Positions 4,471-43,599 of a DNA stretch of 50,327 nt are shown here, one piece after another. The first letter of the stretch is position 1. The number at the start of each line of letters is the position of its first letter. The notes under the pieces were generated by a model. It ran no database searches, was not told the origin of the DNA, and saw only the letters and a list, made by a program, of their open reading frames with translations. The position numbers and the translations under genes were made by a program. Origin of the DNA: Dictyostelium purpureum (lineage: Eukaryota); assembly GCF_000190715.1 (NCBI RefSeq), contig NW_003519574.1:1-50327 (forward strand), written 5' to 3'.

Positions 4471-7400
4471 ATGAAATTAAACATTTTTTTATTATTTATT
4501 TTTTTAGTTAATATTAGTTTTGTAAAATCATTACAGGATGAAGATTGCTTAAAAGCATTATTGGCCAAATTATTCAATATAAATGATGTTGAATTTTGTG
4601 GAAACCCAGTTATTACAAGGGACTATTATTATGAAAGTAAATGTTCAGATTCCAATACAAAAATTCTTGAAAAACTGTATGTTTTATTTCTATTTATTTT
4701 ATAAAATTTTATATTAATTTATTTTTATTTTTTTATTTTTTTAAATTTTAGATCTATCAAAGGGAATGTACCCACTCCCAGTAATCCATCCCCTCCATCT
4801 TTAGTATATGGTGATTTAAGCTGCTTTGAAAATATTAATCAATTGTAACTATAATTATAATAATAAATAATCGAAGAAAATTTAAATATTAATTTTTTTT
4901 TTTTTTATAAAATAGAAATTTATCATTAATAGCAATAAAAAAAGATGCACTAGGTGCAGATGATCAAAAAAATGTTGCAAAACAAATTATTTTAACCTCG
5001 TGTATTTTTGATGATGGAATAATTGTATCTGAAGGCTCTATTTTGCCAAAAGGTCAATTCTATTTAGAAATTTTTATAGATTCATTCTCAAACTTTAAAG
5101 AATTACGTTTTAGATCTATTAAATACATAACTTCTTTGTAATTATCTTTAAAAATAATATTTAAGACAATATAAACAAATATTAATATATTTTCTTCACC
5201 ATTTATTTAGGGAAATTAAAATTGTTGAAAATATAAAATTAAATAACTACCCAAAATATATAAATGATTTAGAAGGTTTAGAAACCAATTTTATTTATAT
5301 GTAAGCATTTTCAACATAAAGTTATTTTTTTTAAATTAAAAATATATTTAATTAATATTTCATTTTTAGTAATTTGTATTCAAATGCTGTCCCAAAATTA
5401 ACAGATCTAAAGATATTTAATTTCTATTTAAAGATTATTGGGGATTTATCCTCGGAGTCAATTGATAATTTAGGTACTTTAAATCAAGTTGAACTATTCA
5501 CATTTTCAAATGATAAAGAAATTGAATTTCCCAAACAAATATTTTCACCAAATAATAAATTCAACCAACTATCTCTAGTACCTAAATTTAAACCTCCAAC
5601 AGAATACATAACCTTACCAAAAACAATACTTGTATTTCTATTCATAGCAGAAAATCCAACATTCAATATCAATGGAAAACTTCCATTTATTTTCCCAGAT
5701 AATATGGTTTATTTGTCTTTAAATAACTTAGGTCTTGTTGAATTTCCAATTTTACCAAAAGATATTAATACATTGTATGTATATAATAAATATATTAAAA
5801 AATATTTTATATTAATTTTTTTTTTTGTTTATTTTTAAAAAAAGAATAATTGTTGGTAATAATTTTGTTATAAATGGTCCAAAACCATTACCAGATCTTT
5901 CATCTTATAAAAGTCTGGCACAAGTTCAACTTACTAATACTGGTTTCAGTGGACCAATTCCTGAAAGCTATTGTTTGTTTGTAAACTATTTATCAAATAA
6001 TAATTTAAATGGTAAGTTCACTGTATAAAATAATAATAAAAAATTAACTGTTTTTTATTAAACCAATTACTAATTTAATATTTTTAATAAAGGAAAACTT
6101 CCAATGTGCAAATCTTGTTATTTAAATCCATATTTTGATGACTATAGAAATAATCCTAATTTAGATTATGGAGTTTGTGGTATGTAGAAAATAAAACTAT
6201 TATTATTATATTTTTATTTTTTTAAAAACATTATTATATTTACTAATTATTTTTATTAAAAAGACGAAAGTTCGATCATTCCTAATTTCGATATATCTTT
6301 TGAAAAAGAAATAACTATATATGGAGAAAATATCGGGTTGAGTTTACCCCAAATTTTCAATTATCCAATTGCATTTTCAACTATCAAAGGAAACTCAATG
6401 TTTAAAGGAAAATGGAATGATATGTGGGGCCAAATTCCAGATACTGTAGTAGTTTCTTTATCGCCAAGAAATTTTACATTTAATACAAAAAACTTATTAC
6501 CATCATTAAATAATATTACAAAATCAAATCTCCAATTTATTTTTGAAGGTTCAAACTTTTCATATAACAAAAATGATTTTGAAATTAAAATTGCAAATGA
6601 AATTTGTTTAATTTCATCGATAACATTTAATAAAATCATTTGTAACTTCCCAAATCAAAAAGTATTACCTGTCAAAAATGATGTCCCAACAACTATTAAG
6701 AATACTAAATCTGGAGAATTCATTTCATTTACTATTAATACACTCGAAGATAAAACAACAGTTGCAAAAGAATGCCCAAATCAATGTATTGAGGGTATTT
6801 GTTCAATTAACACTGGTACATGCATATGCAATCCGGGCTATAGTGGTGAAACATGTAGTCCCATACCATGTAAATCAAACTGTGGTACTCAAGAAGGTAG
6901 AGGCGAATGTAATGGTAAAGTAGGTGTATGTGTTTGTAATCTAAAATGGAAAGGTGAGTCTTGTGAAATACCAAGTCAATTTTTAACATCAGCTTCATCA
7001 ACATTGTCATCGGGCGGTTTAGTTAATTTATATGGTTGGTTTGGATCACCAAATGAAGGTTTGACAATTACAATTGGTTCTTTAAATTGTCAAATACATT
7101 ATTATAATACAACTTTTGCAAATTGTACTATTGGTGCAGGATCAGGTACTAAATCAATAAAGATTATTCAAAACAATCAAGAATGGATTGGTGAAAATAT
7201 GTTCCACTATACAGAAACAACATATAGATGTCCAAAAGACTGTTCTTTAAATGGAGTTGCAAATGGTGAATGCAATAGCTCTTCAGGTCAATGTAAATGT
7301 TTTATTGGTTGGGGTGGATATGACTGTAATTCAAAATCGACAACTGGAGGTTCGACATCAACTAGTTCGGGATCATCTACACCAACACCAACAAAATCAC

Positions 7401-34174: not shown

Positions 34175-37100
34175 TTAAAATTTTAATAAATTTTTGTTTG
34201 ATGAAGTTTTTAAAACATTTTTGATGTATGCACGATCAACTCCATAGCTTAAAAGACTCGATTCACAAGCTAAAATTGGAATATCTCTGGTAATAAGATC
34301 GATGTCATAAGTTTCATCGGTAAGCATACTTAAGAAAACAAAAATGAAAAGGTATAATAAGTTTTTAAAAGTTTTTGATTGTAAACCGCCAAGTTTTCTT
34401 TCGTATTTATAAAATTCCATTTCAGAGATGCCTAATGCAGCAGCAGTTGGTGAAATTTTGAATGATGAAGAACCTAAGTCACTAACAACTTTTCTTAGTT
34501 GAGTACATACTTTAATTGTTAGGCTTGAAATTGAATGTTTTGAGGATGAAGAGAGAGATGAAGATAAAGGTGAGGGAGATACAAAGGAGGATATGGATTG
34601 TGCTGGTTTTACTTTTAGTTTCTCTTCCACAATTTCTGATCTCTCTTTTAATTTTAAATCCTTTTTTTCTTTTCTCTTTTTTTTCTTTTCATCTTTTGCT
34701 GGTAGTGTGTCTTCACTTTTAGCTTGATTACCTCTAGATAGTCTCCTTCTTGAATACTCTTTTATTTCATAACTTTCTTCTTGATATTTGTGGGATACTG
34801 GTTTGGTTGGGGCAGATACCTGGTTGATTGGAGTAGATGCTGGTTTGGTTAGAGTAGATACTGATTTTCCTTGTGGTTTATCATCATAGTCTCCAAATAA
34901 ATCAAAACCCATATCTTCATCACTTTCTTCTTGATATAAACATACTGCTGGTTTGATTGGGGCAGATACTTGGTTGATTGAGGCAGATACTGGTTTTTCT
35001 TGTGGTTTATCATCATAGTCTCCAAATAAATCAAAACCCATATCTTCATCACTTTCTTCTTGATATAAACGTACTGGTTTGGTTGGGACAGAAACTGGTT
35101 TGATTGGGGCAGATACTTGGTTGATTGGGACAGAAACTGGTTTTTCTTGTGGTTTGTCATTATAGTCCCCAAATAAACCAAAACCCATATCTCCATCACT
35201 TTCTTCTTCAGATTCATGAATTTTTGGTTTATCAGGCAATTTTTCGTTGGACATTTGAGGTGTATAGTAATCATATTCATCAAACAACCCAAATCCTATA
35301 TCATCATGGCTTTCTTCTTTCTTTTCTTTCTTTTGTTGTAATGGTGCTGCTGCTGTTAATGTTGATATTGATGTTCCATCATAACCACCATCTGAATCTG
35401 ACCAATCATCTTCATCATCTTCATCATTATCTATAAAACAAGTTGACATTCTACGTAAAGATAGTGCGGACGAAAGTTTGTTTAATAATTCACTATTTGG
35501 CTGGGTAGGTTCTAATTGATTAGCATTTAAAGCAGAAGATTGACCGGCATATTTAAAACTTACACCACTACGAATCGATGAAAGAAGATCACTACGGTCG
35601 GAAGCTAATGATTTAGAAGCAGCCAAGCCACCAAATGAAGGTAGAGGTGGAGGTGGAGGGGCTGGGGCTGATGGGGCTGGGGCTGATGGTAAGGATGTTC
35701 TTGGGGCCATCGAGCCACTACTCTTTCCGCTAATAGAATTGAATCTGTGATCAGAAGGAGCTCCTGGTGAAGGGTAATTGGAATTATTGTTATTGTTATT
35801 TTGTTGATATTTTTGTGGAGCTTTTGGTACACAGCTACCGACGCCTCTGCCTCCACCAAAAAATCCAGACAATGCTTCAATAGGTAATGTTGGTGTTGGA
35901 ATTACTGTTGGTACTGGTGCTCCGCCTACTGCTCTTGAAATGAATGTTTCCCTTTTTGACTGGGGAACGTACAAATTGGGTGGTGGTGGTGGAGGTGGTC
36001 CAGAACTTATTGGAAATATTTTTTTACTGTAAACAGTTGGTAAGGGTAGAAAAGGTGCACCAATTACTTGATTATATACAAAGGGCTCCAATGATTCTTT
36101 GACCTTTGTGCCCAAAGATACAATATGCCTTGGTTCAAGTGGGTGATTTGGAGAGAATGTGATTGATGTTAGAGGAGATGGAGAGTAACTTGGGGATGTT
36201 GGAGAGTAGCTTGGGGATGTTGGAGAGTAACTTGGGGATGTTGGAGAGTAACTTGGGGATGTTGGAGAGTAACTTGGGGATGTTGGAGAGTAGCTTGGGG
36301 ATGTTGGAGCGTAGCTTAGGGATGTTGGTTTATAAATGGGATCTTCATCGTTTATCAATCTAATATTTGTGTCGATTTCAATTTTTGGTTTAAATGATTT
36401 TTGTTTTAGGGTAATATTACTGACTTGGGCAGCTTTTAACCATTCACCGGCACTGGTTTGTGGTATAGTATTTATTTCTTTTTCAGCATTTTCGAAATCA
36501 CTAACTTTACTGGGTATCTCTTTAAGATCTGATAAAGTATAGTTTTCTTCTTCTAATTCTTCGACAATTTCATCTGAATAAACGGTTAATTCATTTAAAT
36601 AGTCTCTTAGTTTTTGGAGTTCTAAAGTTGAATCCTTGTATGAGCTTTCCTCGAGACAATCTAGCTCTGAAATTCCATTATCAAAAGCTTGTTTTGAAAT
36701 TAAAATTGCTTTTTGGGTATCACCATTGGCATGGTAGAAGTGAGAAACTGAATGATAAAACTTGATTAAAGTAGAGTTTGTTGGTGGTAATGGGTTTTCT
36801 TTTGACTTATTTATAAATTGATTATAAAGATTTTCAATTTTTTCTTGCCATTGTTTTTTAGAATATTTGTTATCGTCACATCTATAAAGACCAGTATAAA
36901 TTGAATATTGAGATTCTATTAAAGATAATAATTTCTCTTGATTGGCAAAGGAACTATTCGACATTGAATTATAGCTACTTTCTAATAACCTTAATAATCC
37001 TTTACCTTCGTAAATAATTTCATCTTTAAGTTTCTTTTTTAATCTTTGTTGTTTAGAATTTGCTGATGATAATGGTTTGGTGGGTGTTGTTGGTGCAGAA

Positions 37101-40100
37101 ATATTGATGGAGATTAATGAAGTTACTTTTTCTGAAATCAATTCACTAATAGTATTTGAAAGTAATGATAGTTCATCATGTGAATAGTCACCAAAAGTTT
37201 CATTAAGTTGATAGAATATTCTAATTGAGTCAGAGTATCTATTATTTGAATGGTACTCTTTAATTAAATTAATTAATTGATCACGTTTACTTACAAGTGA
37301 TGGGTCATTTAAGTCTTGATCAAATCCTTCCCCTTTGTTTTCCCATGCAACATATGGTAATGAATCGACAGCAGTTTGGGATATAATCGAATGGATTGAA
37401 TCGATTTTTTTAATTTGTTCGCCAGCTTCTCTTTTTTCAATGGCTACAAAACTTGTGAACTCGGTTACAATGCTATACTTTATGGAAAGATCGATAACAT
37501 CTTGTTTCTTTTTCATTTTAATTAAGTCATGCTCGTGCTTATTTGAGCTATAGGTACCATCGTTATATTCTCTAATCATTGAACGTGCAGCCAATCTATG
37601 AATCAAATTACCTTTGATAAATCCAATTTCGGGTGTATGAACAATGTTTGAAACAATACCCCCACCTGGAGCATGACATACAAGTGTTGCACGTGTACAT
37701 ATACCAGAGAATGCATAAATAACTTGTCTTTCTGATTTAAAAATTGAAGAAATAGTTGCAGGAGATTGAACAATTTTATCAGTACTATCGAATGCTACCT
37801 CGATATTTGACATTGCAGGTTGGAGTACACGTTGGATCATATCAACAATCTTTTTAGGATTTGGACGTTTATTAGGGACAATAAAATCTGCATAGCCACT
37901 ACCAATTCTTGAAATTTGTTTAATGAAATGTCTGGAACAATGTTCACCAATACCAAATGTGAATAAACGACAGAAATTTGAAGCCTTTTTTGCTAACATC
38001 AAAGATAACTCTTCATTTGAAACATTACCATCGGTAAACAATAGAATATTGTGTGGGTTGGTTGGTTTGGCTTTTTCTGATAACAAATAAATTGATTCCA
38101 ATGGAGAGTGTAGTTTTGTACCACCACTAATTGGTTTTAATTTGTTGATGTGGTTCCATGCAATTTGGAGATTTTCTTCGGTTGGTAGGACATCTTCAAC
38201 AAAAAGCCAATCATAATTGTCACCAAAATCACAAATATTGAAAAGTAATTTTGGTACACCACGTAGATTCCTAACAGTTAAACGAACTGCTCTTAAAAGA
38301 TCTTCAAATGTATCACCAGCCATAGATGCAGATAAATCGATGAGTAAAGTTAAGTGAGTGAATGATTCTTGAGTGCTATCGATATCTAATTTTGGATAGA
38401 ATGCCAACATACTGGCATGATGACCTTTATCATCTACCTCTACCCACATACGTGGTGAATAGGGTTCTTCTAGGCCAATTAATAGTTGGAAATTTTTATC
38501 TAAATAGCTCTTATCACCTGGTTGTAGTTCGATAGTAGCTTTTGTGTGAGTTCTTTTGATCTTGATATTATGGGTTGGTGAGGTTAATTTTACAATATTG
38601 TATGGCATATCAATACCAACTTGGATGGTAAGATCTGAATCTTTTTGGTCTTGGTCACTGATTGAAACAGTTTTGGTAACATTTTGTGTAACATTTGAAC
38701 CAGAGGATAAACGTTGTCTAGGTGTGATTGAACGTGGTAATACAAAACTAATATCCAAGCCATCAACTGATAACTCTGTGACATATGTGATTTTAATAAG
38801 AACATCACACTTTGGTGGTAGGTTTCCAACACTAACTGTAAACACATCAGGTTTATCTTCGTCCATTAGATAAGCACCATGGCCTGCAGCTACAGCCTCT
38901 CGATATTCACGATGAGCCTTTTCTTTTTCTTTTACTTCACCAATAATATGTTTACCATTGATAAATGCTTCAAAACCGCAAACTGCACCCATTTCGTCTA
39001 ATGGAAAAACATATTTTGCCTCAATAGTTGACGAGGAACAATTTTGATAGTGTTGATAGATAGTGACTTCTCCAATAAGATCTAATACTCTAGCTCTAAC
39101 ATGAACAGATTTTAATGGAATATCATCTTTGCCAGATGATGATTTTGAAACCAGACCAATTTCTTTTTGCTCTTCTTCTTCTTCAATATCTTTTTTATTT
39201 TCTGATTTTTCTGGAATAGTGGTAGGACATTCATCTGGTTTAATTGTTGTTTGTGGACTATTTGAAACATTTAAGACTTGGTTGGGAATATTTAATAATT
39301 CTTTTCTTAAATTTGTATCTTGAAATTCAATTAAGTATTGTAGTTTTTGTTGTTTTGAATTATAAATTACAATTTCATCATCTAGAAATTCAGATTTTAA
39401 ATTTGAGGTAGATTGGACACCCTGAACACTATTAAATCCTTTTGGTGGTTGATTTAATTGAATTTGATGAGTTGTATATTTCTTGCAATTACCCAATGCA
39501 ACTTGACAAATAAACATATATTTATGATGATTAATTTCTGAATCTTTGCAGTATTGTGCGCTTGTCATTGCTTTGGTACCAAAATAAATGCCAGAACCCA
39601 AATAACCAATGTCTCTTCTTCCAGAACCAATTGATGTTGAAACATTTGGTGGTAATAAACCCCTAGATAAAATACCTAAAATATTTGAAGGATTACTACC
39701 ATGATATAGTGTTTTAATATTCCCTAGTTGGAACTTTAAATTCTCTTCATCATTTCTGCTTATTTTATAAATTGATTTAATTGATAATTTCTGAATATTA
39801 ATTTAAAAAATTAGTATGAATTACAAAACAAAAAAAGAAAAAAAAAAAAAACATACATCATCTAATTTTAACTGATCTAATAATCTTTTATAATCTTTGC
39901 TTGAATCATCTAGCTTGGTAATATTACAATGTAATGCTCTATATCTTTTAGCTTCATTATTTCCAACTGAAAATGATAAACCACTTAATGATTCACCGAC
40001 TGATAAAATATCCTTCATAACTTGGATGGACTCTTGAATATCAGATAAATGTTCATAGTCGAATGGCTTGGATGAGCTTGGTTTAATTTGTGGCAAAGCT

Positions 40101-41521
40101 TTGTAAACTTCATTAAATAGCTCCACCGATTTATTTTCATCAATTTTGGTATTTGTGGTTCTAAGTAAAGTGGATAATTGGAATAAAGCCAACTCAGCTT
40201 TATCAACTTGAGCCAATGTGATATCACCCATTGATGTTTTAATGGTACCCTCTGGTGAAAGTGATAATGTATTACCATTACCAAATTTACTGGCTAACTC
40301 TACTATGGCATTATCGTAGAGCATTTTGATTAGTGATTCAATTGACTTTGGTAATGAGTTTGGTGGCAATGGTTTTTGTTGTGATAAATCTTCACTTTGA
40401 GTTTGATAAAGTTTTTTTAATTTATCTGAACCTACTATAACAGAGCTTAATTGTAATTTTGAATAGTCATTTTGATTTAGATACTCCAATAATATTTGAT
40501 TATAAATTGATAAAGCGCTCTCGATGCTATTTGCTGATATCCATTCTTTGGTTTCTTCACTAATTTCTTTATAAATTCCACCAGAAATTGTACCATAGTT
40601 GAGAAAAACTCTATAAAATGATGATGTATCATCATCAGATGAATCTTGGCCACTATTATTCGAGCCACCACCAACTTGAATTAAATTTAAACTTTTACCT
40701 GCCACATGTAGTTCGATACAGCAAAACCTATCAGAAAGCCTATCGTGTTTGGATAAAATATTATGTTTGACAATATGATATTTTGATTCTGGAAATAAAT
40801 CTGATTTTTCATCATATTTTATTCTATCAAATTTTTTATTTTTGTTTTCACTACCTGAATCATTGTTGTTATTATCCCCCAATAAATTTGAAAAGTCAAA
40901 TGATTTATAGTGATATTCTTTAATGTTGTATTTTGATACAAGTGAATATTCGTCATGAGATAATAAACTGCCATATGAAGCTGAATCGTCTAAATATCTT
41001 TTTGAAACAATTGGAATATTTAGTTTGATTGCCTTCTTAATCCCAAAAGATAAATCTTCAATATTAACATCATTATTATTTTCAACTTTGACTAAATCTT
41101 GAAAGTCACCATAGAATACATAATAATTAACCTAAAAATAATTGTTTTAGAATATTAATAAATTTTTTTTTATAAATAAAAGTTGTAATTGAATGAAGTT
41201 GTAAATGATAAAAAATAAGTTAAAATATTTTAGAAAAAAAGAAGATAATTAAAAACCCCTTTGTTATTATTTTAAGGTGTTTAATTCATTTGTTGAAATT
41301 ATAAAAAAGTGTTATTAAATATATAAATATCTCTAACAAAAGAGTTGAATTATAATTACCTTTTGGTTTAAAATCATTGAAACAAGACCACCATTTGATT
41401 CAATAAATGTTTGTAGTTCTTTTTTAATTTTATACCCAGATGATGGACCACAATCAAGATAAAATGTATTACCATTGAGTATATTACTCTTCTTTTGAGT
41501 GTTATTAAATCCTGATGGCAT
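34175..41521 (-). CDS. Vault poly(ADP-ribose) polymerase (PARP4/vPARP)-like protein: BRCT - PARP regulatory+catalytic - VIT - vWA - long repeat-rich tail (>=3 exons, ~2300 aa)
   Basis: Exon 1 (41521..~41367) reads [11 protein letters not shown]...[37 protein letters not shown], the first half of a BRCT domain. A GTAATT intron leads to exon 2 (~41142..39865), which holds the second half of BRCT plus a helical PARP regulatory region ending ...[40 protein letters not shown] intron leads to exon 3 (~39812..34175). Exon 3 carries the PARP signature ([18 protein letters not shown]...[17 protein letters not shown]...[10 protein letters not shown], an H-Y-E triad), then VIT ([25 protein letters not shown]...[32 protein letters not shown]) and vWA ([26 protein letters not shown]). 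The ORF-track entries 39821..40882 and 41333..41521 are therefore exons of this gene. The exact 3' end may involve a further small intron. Confidence 0.8.
34850..35335 (-). repeat. ~150-nt coding tandem repeat x3 (+1 degenerate) encoding '..[39 protein letters not shown]..' inside the PARP-like CDS
   Basis: The near-identical nucleotide units create a spurious antisense ORF (34849..35292) with internal repeats. Protein copies are [35 protein letters not shown] (x2) and [18 protein letters not shown]. Confidence 0.85.
36170..36335 (-). repeat. 8 x 21-nt exact tandem repeat (ggagagtaacttggggatgtt) encoding (PTSPSYS)n, which gives seven canonical YSPTSPS heptads inside the PARP-like CDS
   Basis: The + strand shows ggagagta(a/g)cttggggatgtt repeated. 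The - strand translation is [48 protein letters not shown]. Confidence 0.9.
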
Positions 41522-42037: not shown

Positions 42038-43599
42038 TTATTGTTTATAGTAAAGTTGAGAAAGTTGAGATTGATAATGACCATTTTGGGGAGATGAAGA
42101 TGGTGGTGGTTGTGGTGGTGGTGATTGAAATTGTGGTAATGATTTTGGAACTTGTTGATTATTGTTTGATTGTGGTGAAGATTGTTGTTGCTGTTGTTGT
42201 TGTTGTAAAAACTGTTGTTGATTTTGTCTTATAAAATATTGAACTTTTTTAACAGTGGCCTTGATCATAAACTGATCTCTTGAGAGAGAACGAACATTTT
42301 TTAAGTATTCATCTAGAGAAATTCTGTTACTGTGTAAAGCTTTATCTAAATAATATAAAAGATCCTCAATGGTTGAATCGTCAGAAACTAACTTTAATAA
42401 TTGTTTGGATAATGGATCTTTAGGACCCAACATGGCATCGATATCAATATCAGTTTCAGGTTTATCATTCTCCTTAATCCATTTCTCTAACTGGGTAATA
42501 TTTTCATTTAATTGATCAATTTGACTATTATAAAGTGCCAATTGTTCTTGAAGCTCTCCTTTTTCGAGTTGTTGTTTTTTTGATAACTCTTCCAATGATC
42601 TGTTGTGAACTTGAAAATCTTTAATTTCTTTTACGGTTGTGTCATAATATTGTGATAAAATCTCTTGTAATTTTATTGTACATTCGTCTATTAATTCTTT
42701 CTTTTTATCGATTACAGGTTGTGGAGGAATTTGTGGTAATGATTTAGTTGGTGGTGGTTGTGGTTTTTGTGGTATTGGTGGTGGAATTGCTATGGATGGA
42801 TCACCTAAACCTTTTGATGCTGCTGCTGCTAATGCTGCATTCTTTTTTTGAATTGATGAATCGTATGATGGTGGTGGTACATAATTTGAAGAAGCTCCTG
42901 GTGATGAGCCATAGGGTGGTGGGGGTATAGATCCTGTATTATTATTTCCATTACTATTAACTGGAGAACCGCTTGGAGATGATCCATATGGTGGTGGGGG
43001 TTGATTATATTGTGATGATGTAGTTGATGGCGATGAATTTGGTGATTTGGTTTCTAATGGTGGTTTAAAACTAAAAGCATCACATAATAATTTTAAACAT
43101 TGCCCTAAAGTTGATGCACTGTTCCAACTGCTGATATATGGATGATAAACCAAACCCTGTAGGTTTGCATGTTGATGACTTTCCACTATTCTCATTTCTG
43201 GTGTTGGATCTAAAAATATGGTTGGATATTCTAATGGATAGTTTAATGGTACCCATACGATAATTGGTAAATAATAATTTATATTTTTAAAACAAATTGG
43301 TATTGTACCTTTAATATTAATTAAATTTATATTTCTACCTAAATTTTAAAATTGAATAAGTATTATAAATTAAATTATTATTATGGAGGAGTATTGTAAT
43401 ACTTACTTGGTATATTTTCATAATATGGTGATAAATTTGGGAATAAATGAAAGGTTTCTTTTAAATCCTTTGCAACTCTTAAAGGATCCCTATATGCTCT
43501 AATATAATTTAAATATGTATTCAAATTATGCATTTTACCATCAACAACACTATGTGTTGGTTGTGGCATTTGCTGTTGATAACCATGATAGCCATACAT
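42038..43599 (-). CDS. tsg101: ESCRT-I subunit TSG101/Vps23 (UEV domain - Pro-rich linker - coiled coil - steadiness box), >=3 exons
   Basis: Exon 1 (43599..~43408) reads MYGYHGYQQQ...NTYLNYIRAYRDPLRVAKDLKETFHLFPNLSPYYENIP. A middle exon (~43200..43310) reads GTIPICFKNINYYLPIIVWVPLNYPLEYPTIFLDPTPE. The ORF 42038..43195 reads MRIVESHQHANLQGLVYHPYISSWN.... These are the conserved UEV-domain strands of TSG101. A PPPY-type Pro-rich linker, a coiled coil (ELIDECTIKLQEILSQYYD..) and a C-terminal S-box (ISLDEYLKNVRSLSRDQFMIKATVKKV) follow. Confidence 0.8.

Follow-up and report, generated by a model that had tools for sequence, protein, structure and literature searches.

The window considered here, a stretch of 50,327 nucleotides from Dictyostelium purpureum (contig NW_003519574.1 of assembly GCF_000190715.1, positions 1 to 50,327), encodes on its minus strand a 2350-residue protein of the PARP4, or vault-PARP, family in which a short tandem array of the heptad YSPTSPS, the consensus repeat in the carboxy-terminal domain (CTD) that the RNA polymerase II (Pol II) subunit Rpb1 carries, is embedded in a long tail predicted to be disordered. 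The gene is described by a three-exon model with GT..AG introns (41521..41360, 41131..39857 and 39790..34175), the translation of which matches the NCBI protein DICPUDRAFT_155275 (Dictyostelium purpureum) at 100% identity and 100% coverage; coordinates of features refer to the minus strand unless stated otherwise. Exon 1 (41360..41521) supplies the start codon and the beginning of a BRCT domain; exon 2 (39857..41131) completes the BRCT domain and adds a weak PARP regulatory-like region; and exon 3 (34175..39790, stop codon included; 5.6 kb) encodes the PARP catalytic, VIT, vWA and 14-3-3-like domains together with the disordered tail and a C-terminal helical domain. The resulting order of BRCT, PARP, VIT, vWA and 14-3-3-like domains, followed by a tail of ~700 residues, identifies the protein with high confidence as having the PARP4/vault-PARP architecture, in the subtype that carries an appended 14-3-3-like domain.

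The whole array, decayed edges included, occupies 36167..36334 (residues 1632-1687), and translation unit by unit resolves it into eight heptads: a degenerate first unit, YKPTSLS (36314..36334); a second, YAPTSPS (36293..36313), in register and with a single substitution; five perfect copies of YSPTSPS (36188..36292; residues 1646-1680); and a truncated last unit, YSPSPLT (36167..36187). At the DNA level, four of the five perfect units read TACTCTCCAACATCCCCAAGT and the remaining copy differs by a synonymous AGT>AGC change, while Tandem Repeats Finder reports a single 21-nucleotide array (36179..36328) of 7.1 copies with 96% matches and 0 indels. An earlier sequence-only reading of this DNA had located the element correctly, its coordinates and 48-residue peptide being recovered exactly on the minus strand of the translated protein at residue 1638; its count of seven perfect heptads has to be lowered to five, the figure of seven having likely been taken from the 7.1 copies of Tandem Repeats Finder, and its description of the copies as nucleotide-perfect gives way to the 96% match and the AGC variant. 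The assignment to the canonical Pol II CTD repeat is upheld by the Pfam model RNA_pol_Rpb1_R, which scores 21.9 bits on the D. purpureum protein against a cut-off of 20.3.

That a frame error or an intron might leave the repeat untranslated had been named as one circumstance that would overturn the sequence-only reading. The array (168 bp) instead lies in frame within a minus-strand open reading frame (ORF) of 1808 codons, without a frame break, in a gene model identical to the NCBI protein, and its guanine–cytosine (GC) content of 0.48, with 0.34 in the exon and 0.14-0.15 in the two introns, marks it as exon rather than intron sequence; a plus-strand ORF at 36163..36363 is a mere antisense reading of the repeat. 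The D. purpureum array is accordingly regarded, with high confidence, as genuine and translated, consisting of canonical Pol II CTD heptads in the disordered tail of a PARP4-family protein.

Comparison with other dictyostelids, proposed as a check in the sequence-only reading, has recovered canonical heptads in Cavenderia fasciculata, Heterostelium album and a dictyostelid represented in EukProt, and a remnant in Synstelium polycarpum; together with D. purpureum these make up five full-length proteins with the whole architecture, 14-3-3-like domain included. The five perfect heptads and variants of D. purpureum lie between the 14-3-3-like domain and a series of proline runs, and the same landmarks bracket the array of C. 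fasciculata (YEPSSPS and YEPTSPS, then three perfect units). The H. album array (YSPTAPS and six perfect units) falls between a WH2-like helix and a central helix further along the tail, a position shared by the EukProt dictyostelid (two perfect units and YAPTSES), and the Synstelium remnant, LPSPTSPSNSP only, occupies the upstream position. The H. album tail scores 33.5 bits with RNA_pol_Rpb1_R. Dictyostelid phylogeny places Cavenderia in group 1, Heterostelium in group 2 and D. purpureum in group 4, so that the heptad motif spans the crown of the Dictyostelia.

Five H. album units share the identical sequence TACTCACCAACCTCACCATCT and one is a synonymous variant; the three perfect units of C. 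fasciculata have three different DNA spellings, all synonymous; and when the consensus units of different species are compared, 3-4 of their 7 codons differ, the number of non-synonymous differences being 0. The seventh residue of the heptad, Ser7, is spelled AGT in both upstream arrays, those of D. purpureum and C. fasciculata, and TCT in H. album, which fits two separate array sites. On our reading of these sequences, the peptide would be held by selection while copies are homogenised in some species by slippage or unequal exchange, and the conservation of the heptads argues that the motif is used. The proposal of a very recent expansion is retained in part: copy number does look recently homogenised, and polymorphism in it would be plausible, but the arrays of C. 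fasciculata and H. album, with their synonymously diverged codons, speak against a recent origin.

Recurrence of the motif beyond the Dictyostelia was examined by HMMER, an exhaustive search for which the VIT-vWA-14-3-3 region served as query returning 14,862 matches at E≤0.001; heptads were scanned for in the best 150 representatives of these matches and in the other family proteins retrieved. A PARP4-like protein of the sponge Sycon ciliatum (XP_065198502) carries six perfect YSPTSPS units and about five variants at residues 1585-1661, past the vWA region and ahead of a C-terminal segment that resembles, by eye, the vertebrate PARP4 C-terminus, and PARP4 of the mussel Sinanodonta woodiana carries two perfect heptads; both sets occupy the same inter-domain region of PARP4 as the amoeba arrays. 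In all, exact YSPTSPS is carried by six PARP4-family genes in three lineages, against a composition-based chance expectation of 0.0007 occurrences across 76 family proteins of at least 1500 residues (148,384 residues). No CTD heptad arrays were present among the vertebrate PARP4 sequences scanned. A VIT-vWA query yielded no new heptad carriers among the 120 matches listed, all of which are ≤1225 residues long and mostly tail-less; that word-indexed search missed the query protein itself, and absences from it should not be over-read.

A protein search with the array alone as query recovered one 60-residue Rpb1 fragment, scores probably being suppressed by the composition-bias correction of HMMER. 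A degenerate two-heptad DNA pattern, scanned against 2.9 million viral contigs and 185,579 prokaryote species (one genome each), matched nothing beyond the C-termini of giant-virus Rpb1, a single contig of 504 bp and a GC-rich near-match in Streptomyces. The view that the heptad is essentially restricted to Rpb1 needs qualifying: outside Rpb1 these prokaryote and virus collections are almost empty of it, but within the PARP4 family the motif recurs. The giant-virus sequences, from IMG/VR contigs, feature Rpb1 C-termini followed by CTD-type heptads (YSPTSPC in five copies, 665-747; YSPTSP[TA] in at least eight, 5718-5758); the usual description of viral Rpb1 is that of a protein without a CTD. 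The 504-bp contig, NZ_BAABJQ010000156.1, is labelled Rugosimonospora acidiphila in an actinomycete assembly and encodes consecutive CTD heptads, of which four are perfect; contamination of the assembly by a eukaryotic Rpb1 sequence is the most likely source. In the literature searched, no paper brings YSPTSPS or heptad repeats together with PARP4 or vault PARP, and neither the array nor its conservation among Dictyostelia, nor its recurrence in PARP4 of sponge and mussel, was met there, the family and its 14-3-3 subtype being already known.

In the host protein, the N-terminal BRCT domain (PF00533; residues 11-104) is recognised at 23.9 bits against a cut-off of 21.3, and the PARP catalytic domain (39323..39790; residues 480-635) at 96 bits (PF00644), its best Protein Data Bank (PDB) matches being human PARP4 chains (E 1e-33), with PARP1 at 6e-13. 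The H-Y-E motifs YHGS, GIYF and DDEIVIY align with LHGS, GIYF and DDEFVVY of human PARP4; the H-Y-E triad is kept, and the enzyme looks catalytically competent. The VIT domain (38783..39115; Pfam E 8.5e-37) and the vWA domain (37871..38353; VWA_3 E 5e-14) form a region with 33-44% identity to animal PARP4. The all-helical 14-3-3-like domain (36563..37306; residues ~1308-1555) scores 48 bits with PF00244 (cut-off 33.2), matches 14-3-3 zeta at E 2.4e-14 and retains an almost intact C-terminal helix signature, FDxxISELDxLxExSYKDSTL. Zeta residues K49, R56, R127 and Y128 stand opposite S, V, E and S in the phmmer alignment, of low confidence around R127/Y128, and the domain probably does not read phosphopeptides in the canonical manner; the idea that it might bind the adjacent heptads in cis once these are phosphorylated was considered and rejected as unsupported, the four phosphate-binding residues not being conserved. 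The C-terminal helical domain (34178..34534; residues 2232-2350) is conserved among the dictyostelid orthologues. Its comparison with MINT, the vault-docking domain, gave no PARP4 sequence match in a PDB profile search, an hhalign probability of 0.1 against fish PARP4 C-termini, and no PDB match at E≤0.001 when an AlphaFold2 model (of low confidence, with a predicted local distance difference test score, pLDDT, of 55) was searched with Foldseek.

The tail that carries the heptads is predicted to be intrinsically disordered. In an AlphaFold2 model of residues 1300-2000, built on an alignment of three orthologues, the 14-3-3-like part is confidently helical (pLDDT about 85-95), all of the model from residue ~268 on falls below pLDDT 50, and the heptads, at model residues 333-388, show a pLDDT of 30-37 without secondary structure. 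Within the same tail, two weak helices coincide exactly with a WH2-like segment and the amphipathic segment that follows it, after which comes the acidic stretch DEDDEDDW, the three elements composing a module that resembles the VCA region of WASP (35393..35614; residues 1872-1945). This VCA-like module comes after the proline runs and is present in all five dictyostelid orthologues, although the Pfam WH2 model remains below its cut-off in all tails tested (E 0.006-0.012, 13-17 bits against 23.1); the acidic-W stretch is found by pattern match in four of the five and, in Synstelium, by eye as DDGDDNW.

Closer to the C-terminus, four motifs of the form D[IM]GF[GD]LF (34895..35302; residues 1976, 2013, 2062 and 2105), lying partly within a 129-nucleotide tandem repeat, resemble the tails of ribosomal P-stalk proteins and are matched at 45.9 bits by Pfam Ribosomal_60s, the match being to the C-terminal peptide of those proteins. 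The related pattern D[IMV]GF[GD]LF also turns up in PARP4-family tails from groupers, Mastigella and Euglena and from several metagenomic proteins, and grouper tails combine D[MV]GFGLF with EDDDEDW; judged from these sequences, the P-stalk-like motif may be an old and widespread feature of PARP4 tails rather than a dictyostelid oddity. Its recurrence is suggestive in view of the 80S ribosomes found inside D. discoideum vaults (PMC13100048). The earlier characterisation of the region as a modular tail of interaction motifs is a fair one, given that P-stalk-type motifs, proline runs and the VCA-like module with its WH2, central and acidic-W elements adjoin the heptads.

Further low-complexity elements accompany these modules. 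A KKKKRK run (34670..34687; residue 2181) resembles a classical nuclear-localisation signal, and the tails of H. album, Sycon and Sinanodonta likewise have runs rich in lysine. Four orthologue tails (about residues 1790-2100) feature nucleoporin-like phenylalanine–glycine (FG) repeats, with TFxGMFGA and a proline run as well as SLFG, SFG and PFG; in D. purpureum, FG-type repeats are seen as traces only (SGFFGGG and PSFGG). Upstream of the gene, at 42038..43195 on the same strand, lies a neighbour that would encode a proline/glutamine-rich protein with a putative coiled-coil C-terminal half, possibly the end of a Tsg101/Vps23-like ESCRT-I gene.

The reading favoured here, as the leading candidate though one that in itself stops somewhat short of being probable, is that the array is a selectively kept CTD-type docking and phospho-acceptor site within a multi-motif tail. 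Selection on the peptide would keep the array across Dictyostelia, whereas slippage or unequal exchange would drive turnover in copy number and so homogenise the DNA units within a species. The Ser-Pro sites would be phosphorylated by CTD kinases or other proline-directed kinases, and five to six heptads would supply several di-heptad units to the proteins that read the Pol II tail, since the di-heptad has been described as the minimal functional unit of the CTD (PMC6548728). Candidate readers include WW/Pin1-type isomerases, CID proteins, capping enzyme and CTD phosphatases, which may be tethered to the PARP as partners or as ADP-ribosylation substrates, or to which the PARP may itself be tethered. 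On this account the tail would present the array alongside its P-stalk-tail motifs, its proline runs and a VCA-like module for actin or Arp2/3, each as a module among others.

Several observations weigh against this docking role. The array is far shorter, at five perfect and eight total units, than any functional Pol II CTD, which have about 15-52 repeats. Its position is not fixed, lying upstream of the proline runs in some species and between the WH2-like and central helices in others, and when D. purpureum is compared with C. fasciculata the sequences on either side of the array do not align, the heptads alone doing so; positional orthology consequently rests solely on the order of landmarks, and conservation is inseparable from repeated gain. 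The count of synonymous against non-synonymous differences is partly circular, units having been picked as heptad-like. The array is nearly lost in Synstelium, and homology searches with the full-length protein, for which 11 matches were listed and absences should not be over-read, or with the VIT-vWA-14-3-3 region retrieved no D. discoideum orthologue, that species having only PARP4 relatives without VIT or vWA (PMC4245714); whatever the array does would on these grounds be dispensable. The sponge and mussel proteins are gene predictions, a look-up of DNA for that exact Sycon protein found none on record, and a Sycon transcript fragment covers the N-terminus only. A special enrichment of heptads in PARP4 is therefore supported but not proven, the scans for the repeat elsewhere having been made in prokaryote and viral collections.

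An alternative in which the tail acts as bait, or integrated decoy, is judged less likely than the docking reading and is, taken by itself, unlikely: the tail would display peptides of host hubs targeted by pathogens (the Pol II CTD, the P-stalk tail and the WASP VCA region) so that viral or bacterial factors are captured and then ADP-ribosylated or sequestered. Ribosome-inactivating toxins bind P-stalk tails and influenza polymerase binds the phosphorylated CTD; the amoeba tail combines at least three motifs of this hub type; and the patchy recurrence of such motifs across distant PARP4 tails is what would be seen in a region shaped by an arms race. The equivalent disordered region of vertebrate PARP4 (human exon 30) has moreover undergone strong recurrent positive selection, and Daugherty et al. 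2014 (PMC4038475) proposed that it binds factors of pathogens, which would thereby be delivered to vaults or become ADP-ribosylated. The amoeba heptads, by contrast, are under purifying rather than diversifying selection, although a decoy of a conserved host peptide would also be conserved, and comparisons of sequence, profile and fold did not show vault docking of the D. purpureum protein. The broader form of the idea, in which PARP4 tails across amoebae and animals would be racks of hub peptides (CTD, P-stalk, VCA and FG-type) acting as decoys, possibly with capture in vaults, is considered rather improbable; were the decoy account true, it would give the PARP4/vault system a role in innate-immune sensing older than animals.

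As unlikely as the decoy is a phospho-regulated spacer, whose Ser/Thr-Pro sites would serve MAPK or CDK enzymes in tuning the conformation or charge of a linker and the activity of motifs nearby, the VCA-like module for example, while CTD readers would play no part. The predicted disorder of the tail suits this role, as does the placement of the H. album and EukProt arrays exactly between the WH2-like and central helices, where linker properties matter. A spacer does not, however, need the exact Y-S-P-T-S-P-S sequence, which has nevertheless been kept through synonymous change in three dictyostelids and reappears in sponge and mussel.

The heptads could also serve as a condensate address tag, weak multivalent stickers directing the protein into assemblies of the Pol II CTD type or into other low-complexity assemblies, an option regarded as distinctly doubtful. 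CTD heptads are reported to phase-separate in a length-dependent manner (bioRxiv 10.1101/316372), and the long disordered tail, the FG-type repeats of the orthologue tails and the nuclear-localisation-like KKKKRK run are compatible with such a tag; the five to six repeats are few against the 26-52 that drive phase separation of the CTD.

Equally doubtful is a neutral minisatellite, that is, 21-nucleotide slippage in a tolerant low-complexity region, functionless and with a likeness to the CTD that is coincidental or derived from an ectopic copy of rpb1. Coding repeats abound in dictyostelid genomes, D. purpureum and H. album each have nearly identical DNA units, and decay of the array in Synstelium and absence of the gene from D. 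discoideum would be unremarkable for such a sequence. A founding heptad is however expected only about 7e-4 times over the 76 long family members, against six carrier genes in three lineages; the codon differences between species are all synonymous; and the C. fasciculata copies have diverged synonymously and yet remain perfect. Synonymous-only divergence and recurrence together disfavour a purely neutral repeat. An artefact, whether assembly collapse or expansion or a mis-annotated intron, is considered negligible: the analysis covered one D. purpureum assembly, but this is Sanger-based with reads longer than the array, the 168 bp lie unbroken in a 5.6-kb open exon at GC 0.48 against 0.14 in introns, and independent dictyostelid genomes encode the same motif in the orthologues.

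CTD heptads are among the most specific of eukaryotic linear motifs, and their retention in PARP4 under purifying selection, with occurrences in amoeba, sponge and mussel, points to an unrecognised link that joins ADP-ribosylation, and possibly vaults as well, to the readers of the CTD. The array offers a concrete handle on the role of the variable PARP4 tail, a question raised by its unusual evolution in vertebrates. In carrier species, antibodies against the CTD may also detect a non-polymerase protein of ~260 kDa (estimated from 2350 residues).

Set beside the Rpb1 CTD (PF05001), the D. purpureum segment has an identical consensus heptad, Y-S-P-T-S-P-S, repeated in tandem and in register with decayed edge units, is likewise predicted to be disordered, and scores above the Pfam gathering threshold; unlike the Rpb1 CTD, with its 26 repeats in yeast and 52 in mammals (PMC6548728), the array is internal (residues 1632-1687 of 2350) and its host is without Rpb1 domains. 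The host agrees with PARP4/vPARP (PARP clade 5) in the order of BRCT, PARP, VIT and vWA domains and in the long, variable, disordered region after vWA, but differs from human PARP4 in that comparisons at the level of sequence, profile and fold did not recognise an MVP-docking MINT domain. Perina et al. 2014 (PMC4245714) report the 14-3-3-bearing subtype from several species, among them D. purpureum, D. fasciculatum and P. pallidum; they describe actin or actin-binding domains on other PARP4-like proteins and name no heptads, Rpb1, WH2 or P-stalk motifs. Vaults of D. discoideum enclose ribosomes, and vault labelling in that species includes several PARPs (PMC13100048); as D. discoideum is without this gene type and MINT was not recognised here, a vault connection of the D. 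purpureum protein is no more than possible.

The tail region itself corresponds to the exon 30 region of vertebrate PARP4 in lying between vWA and the C-terminal domain, in being disordered and in its variable length and sequence, the vertebrate region having been proposed to form the interaction surface of PARP4 (PMC4038475), with the difference that the vertebrate region is under diversifying selection and the amoeba heptads under purifying selection. A functional analogy, and no more than that, is provided by the Nrd1-interacting motifs (NIMs) of yeast Trf4 and Sen1, which have been described as mimicking the CTD and binding a CTD reader (PMC4186968, PMC7110113) and which, like the amoeba array, place a short CTD-type linear motif on a non-polymerase protein; NIMs are single, non-repetitive, non-heptad mimics of the phosphorylated CTD that engage the Nrd1 CID, whereas the D. 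purpureum tail presents the true consensus in tandem.

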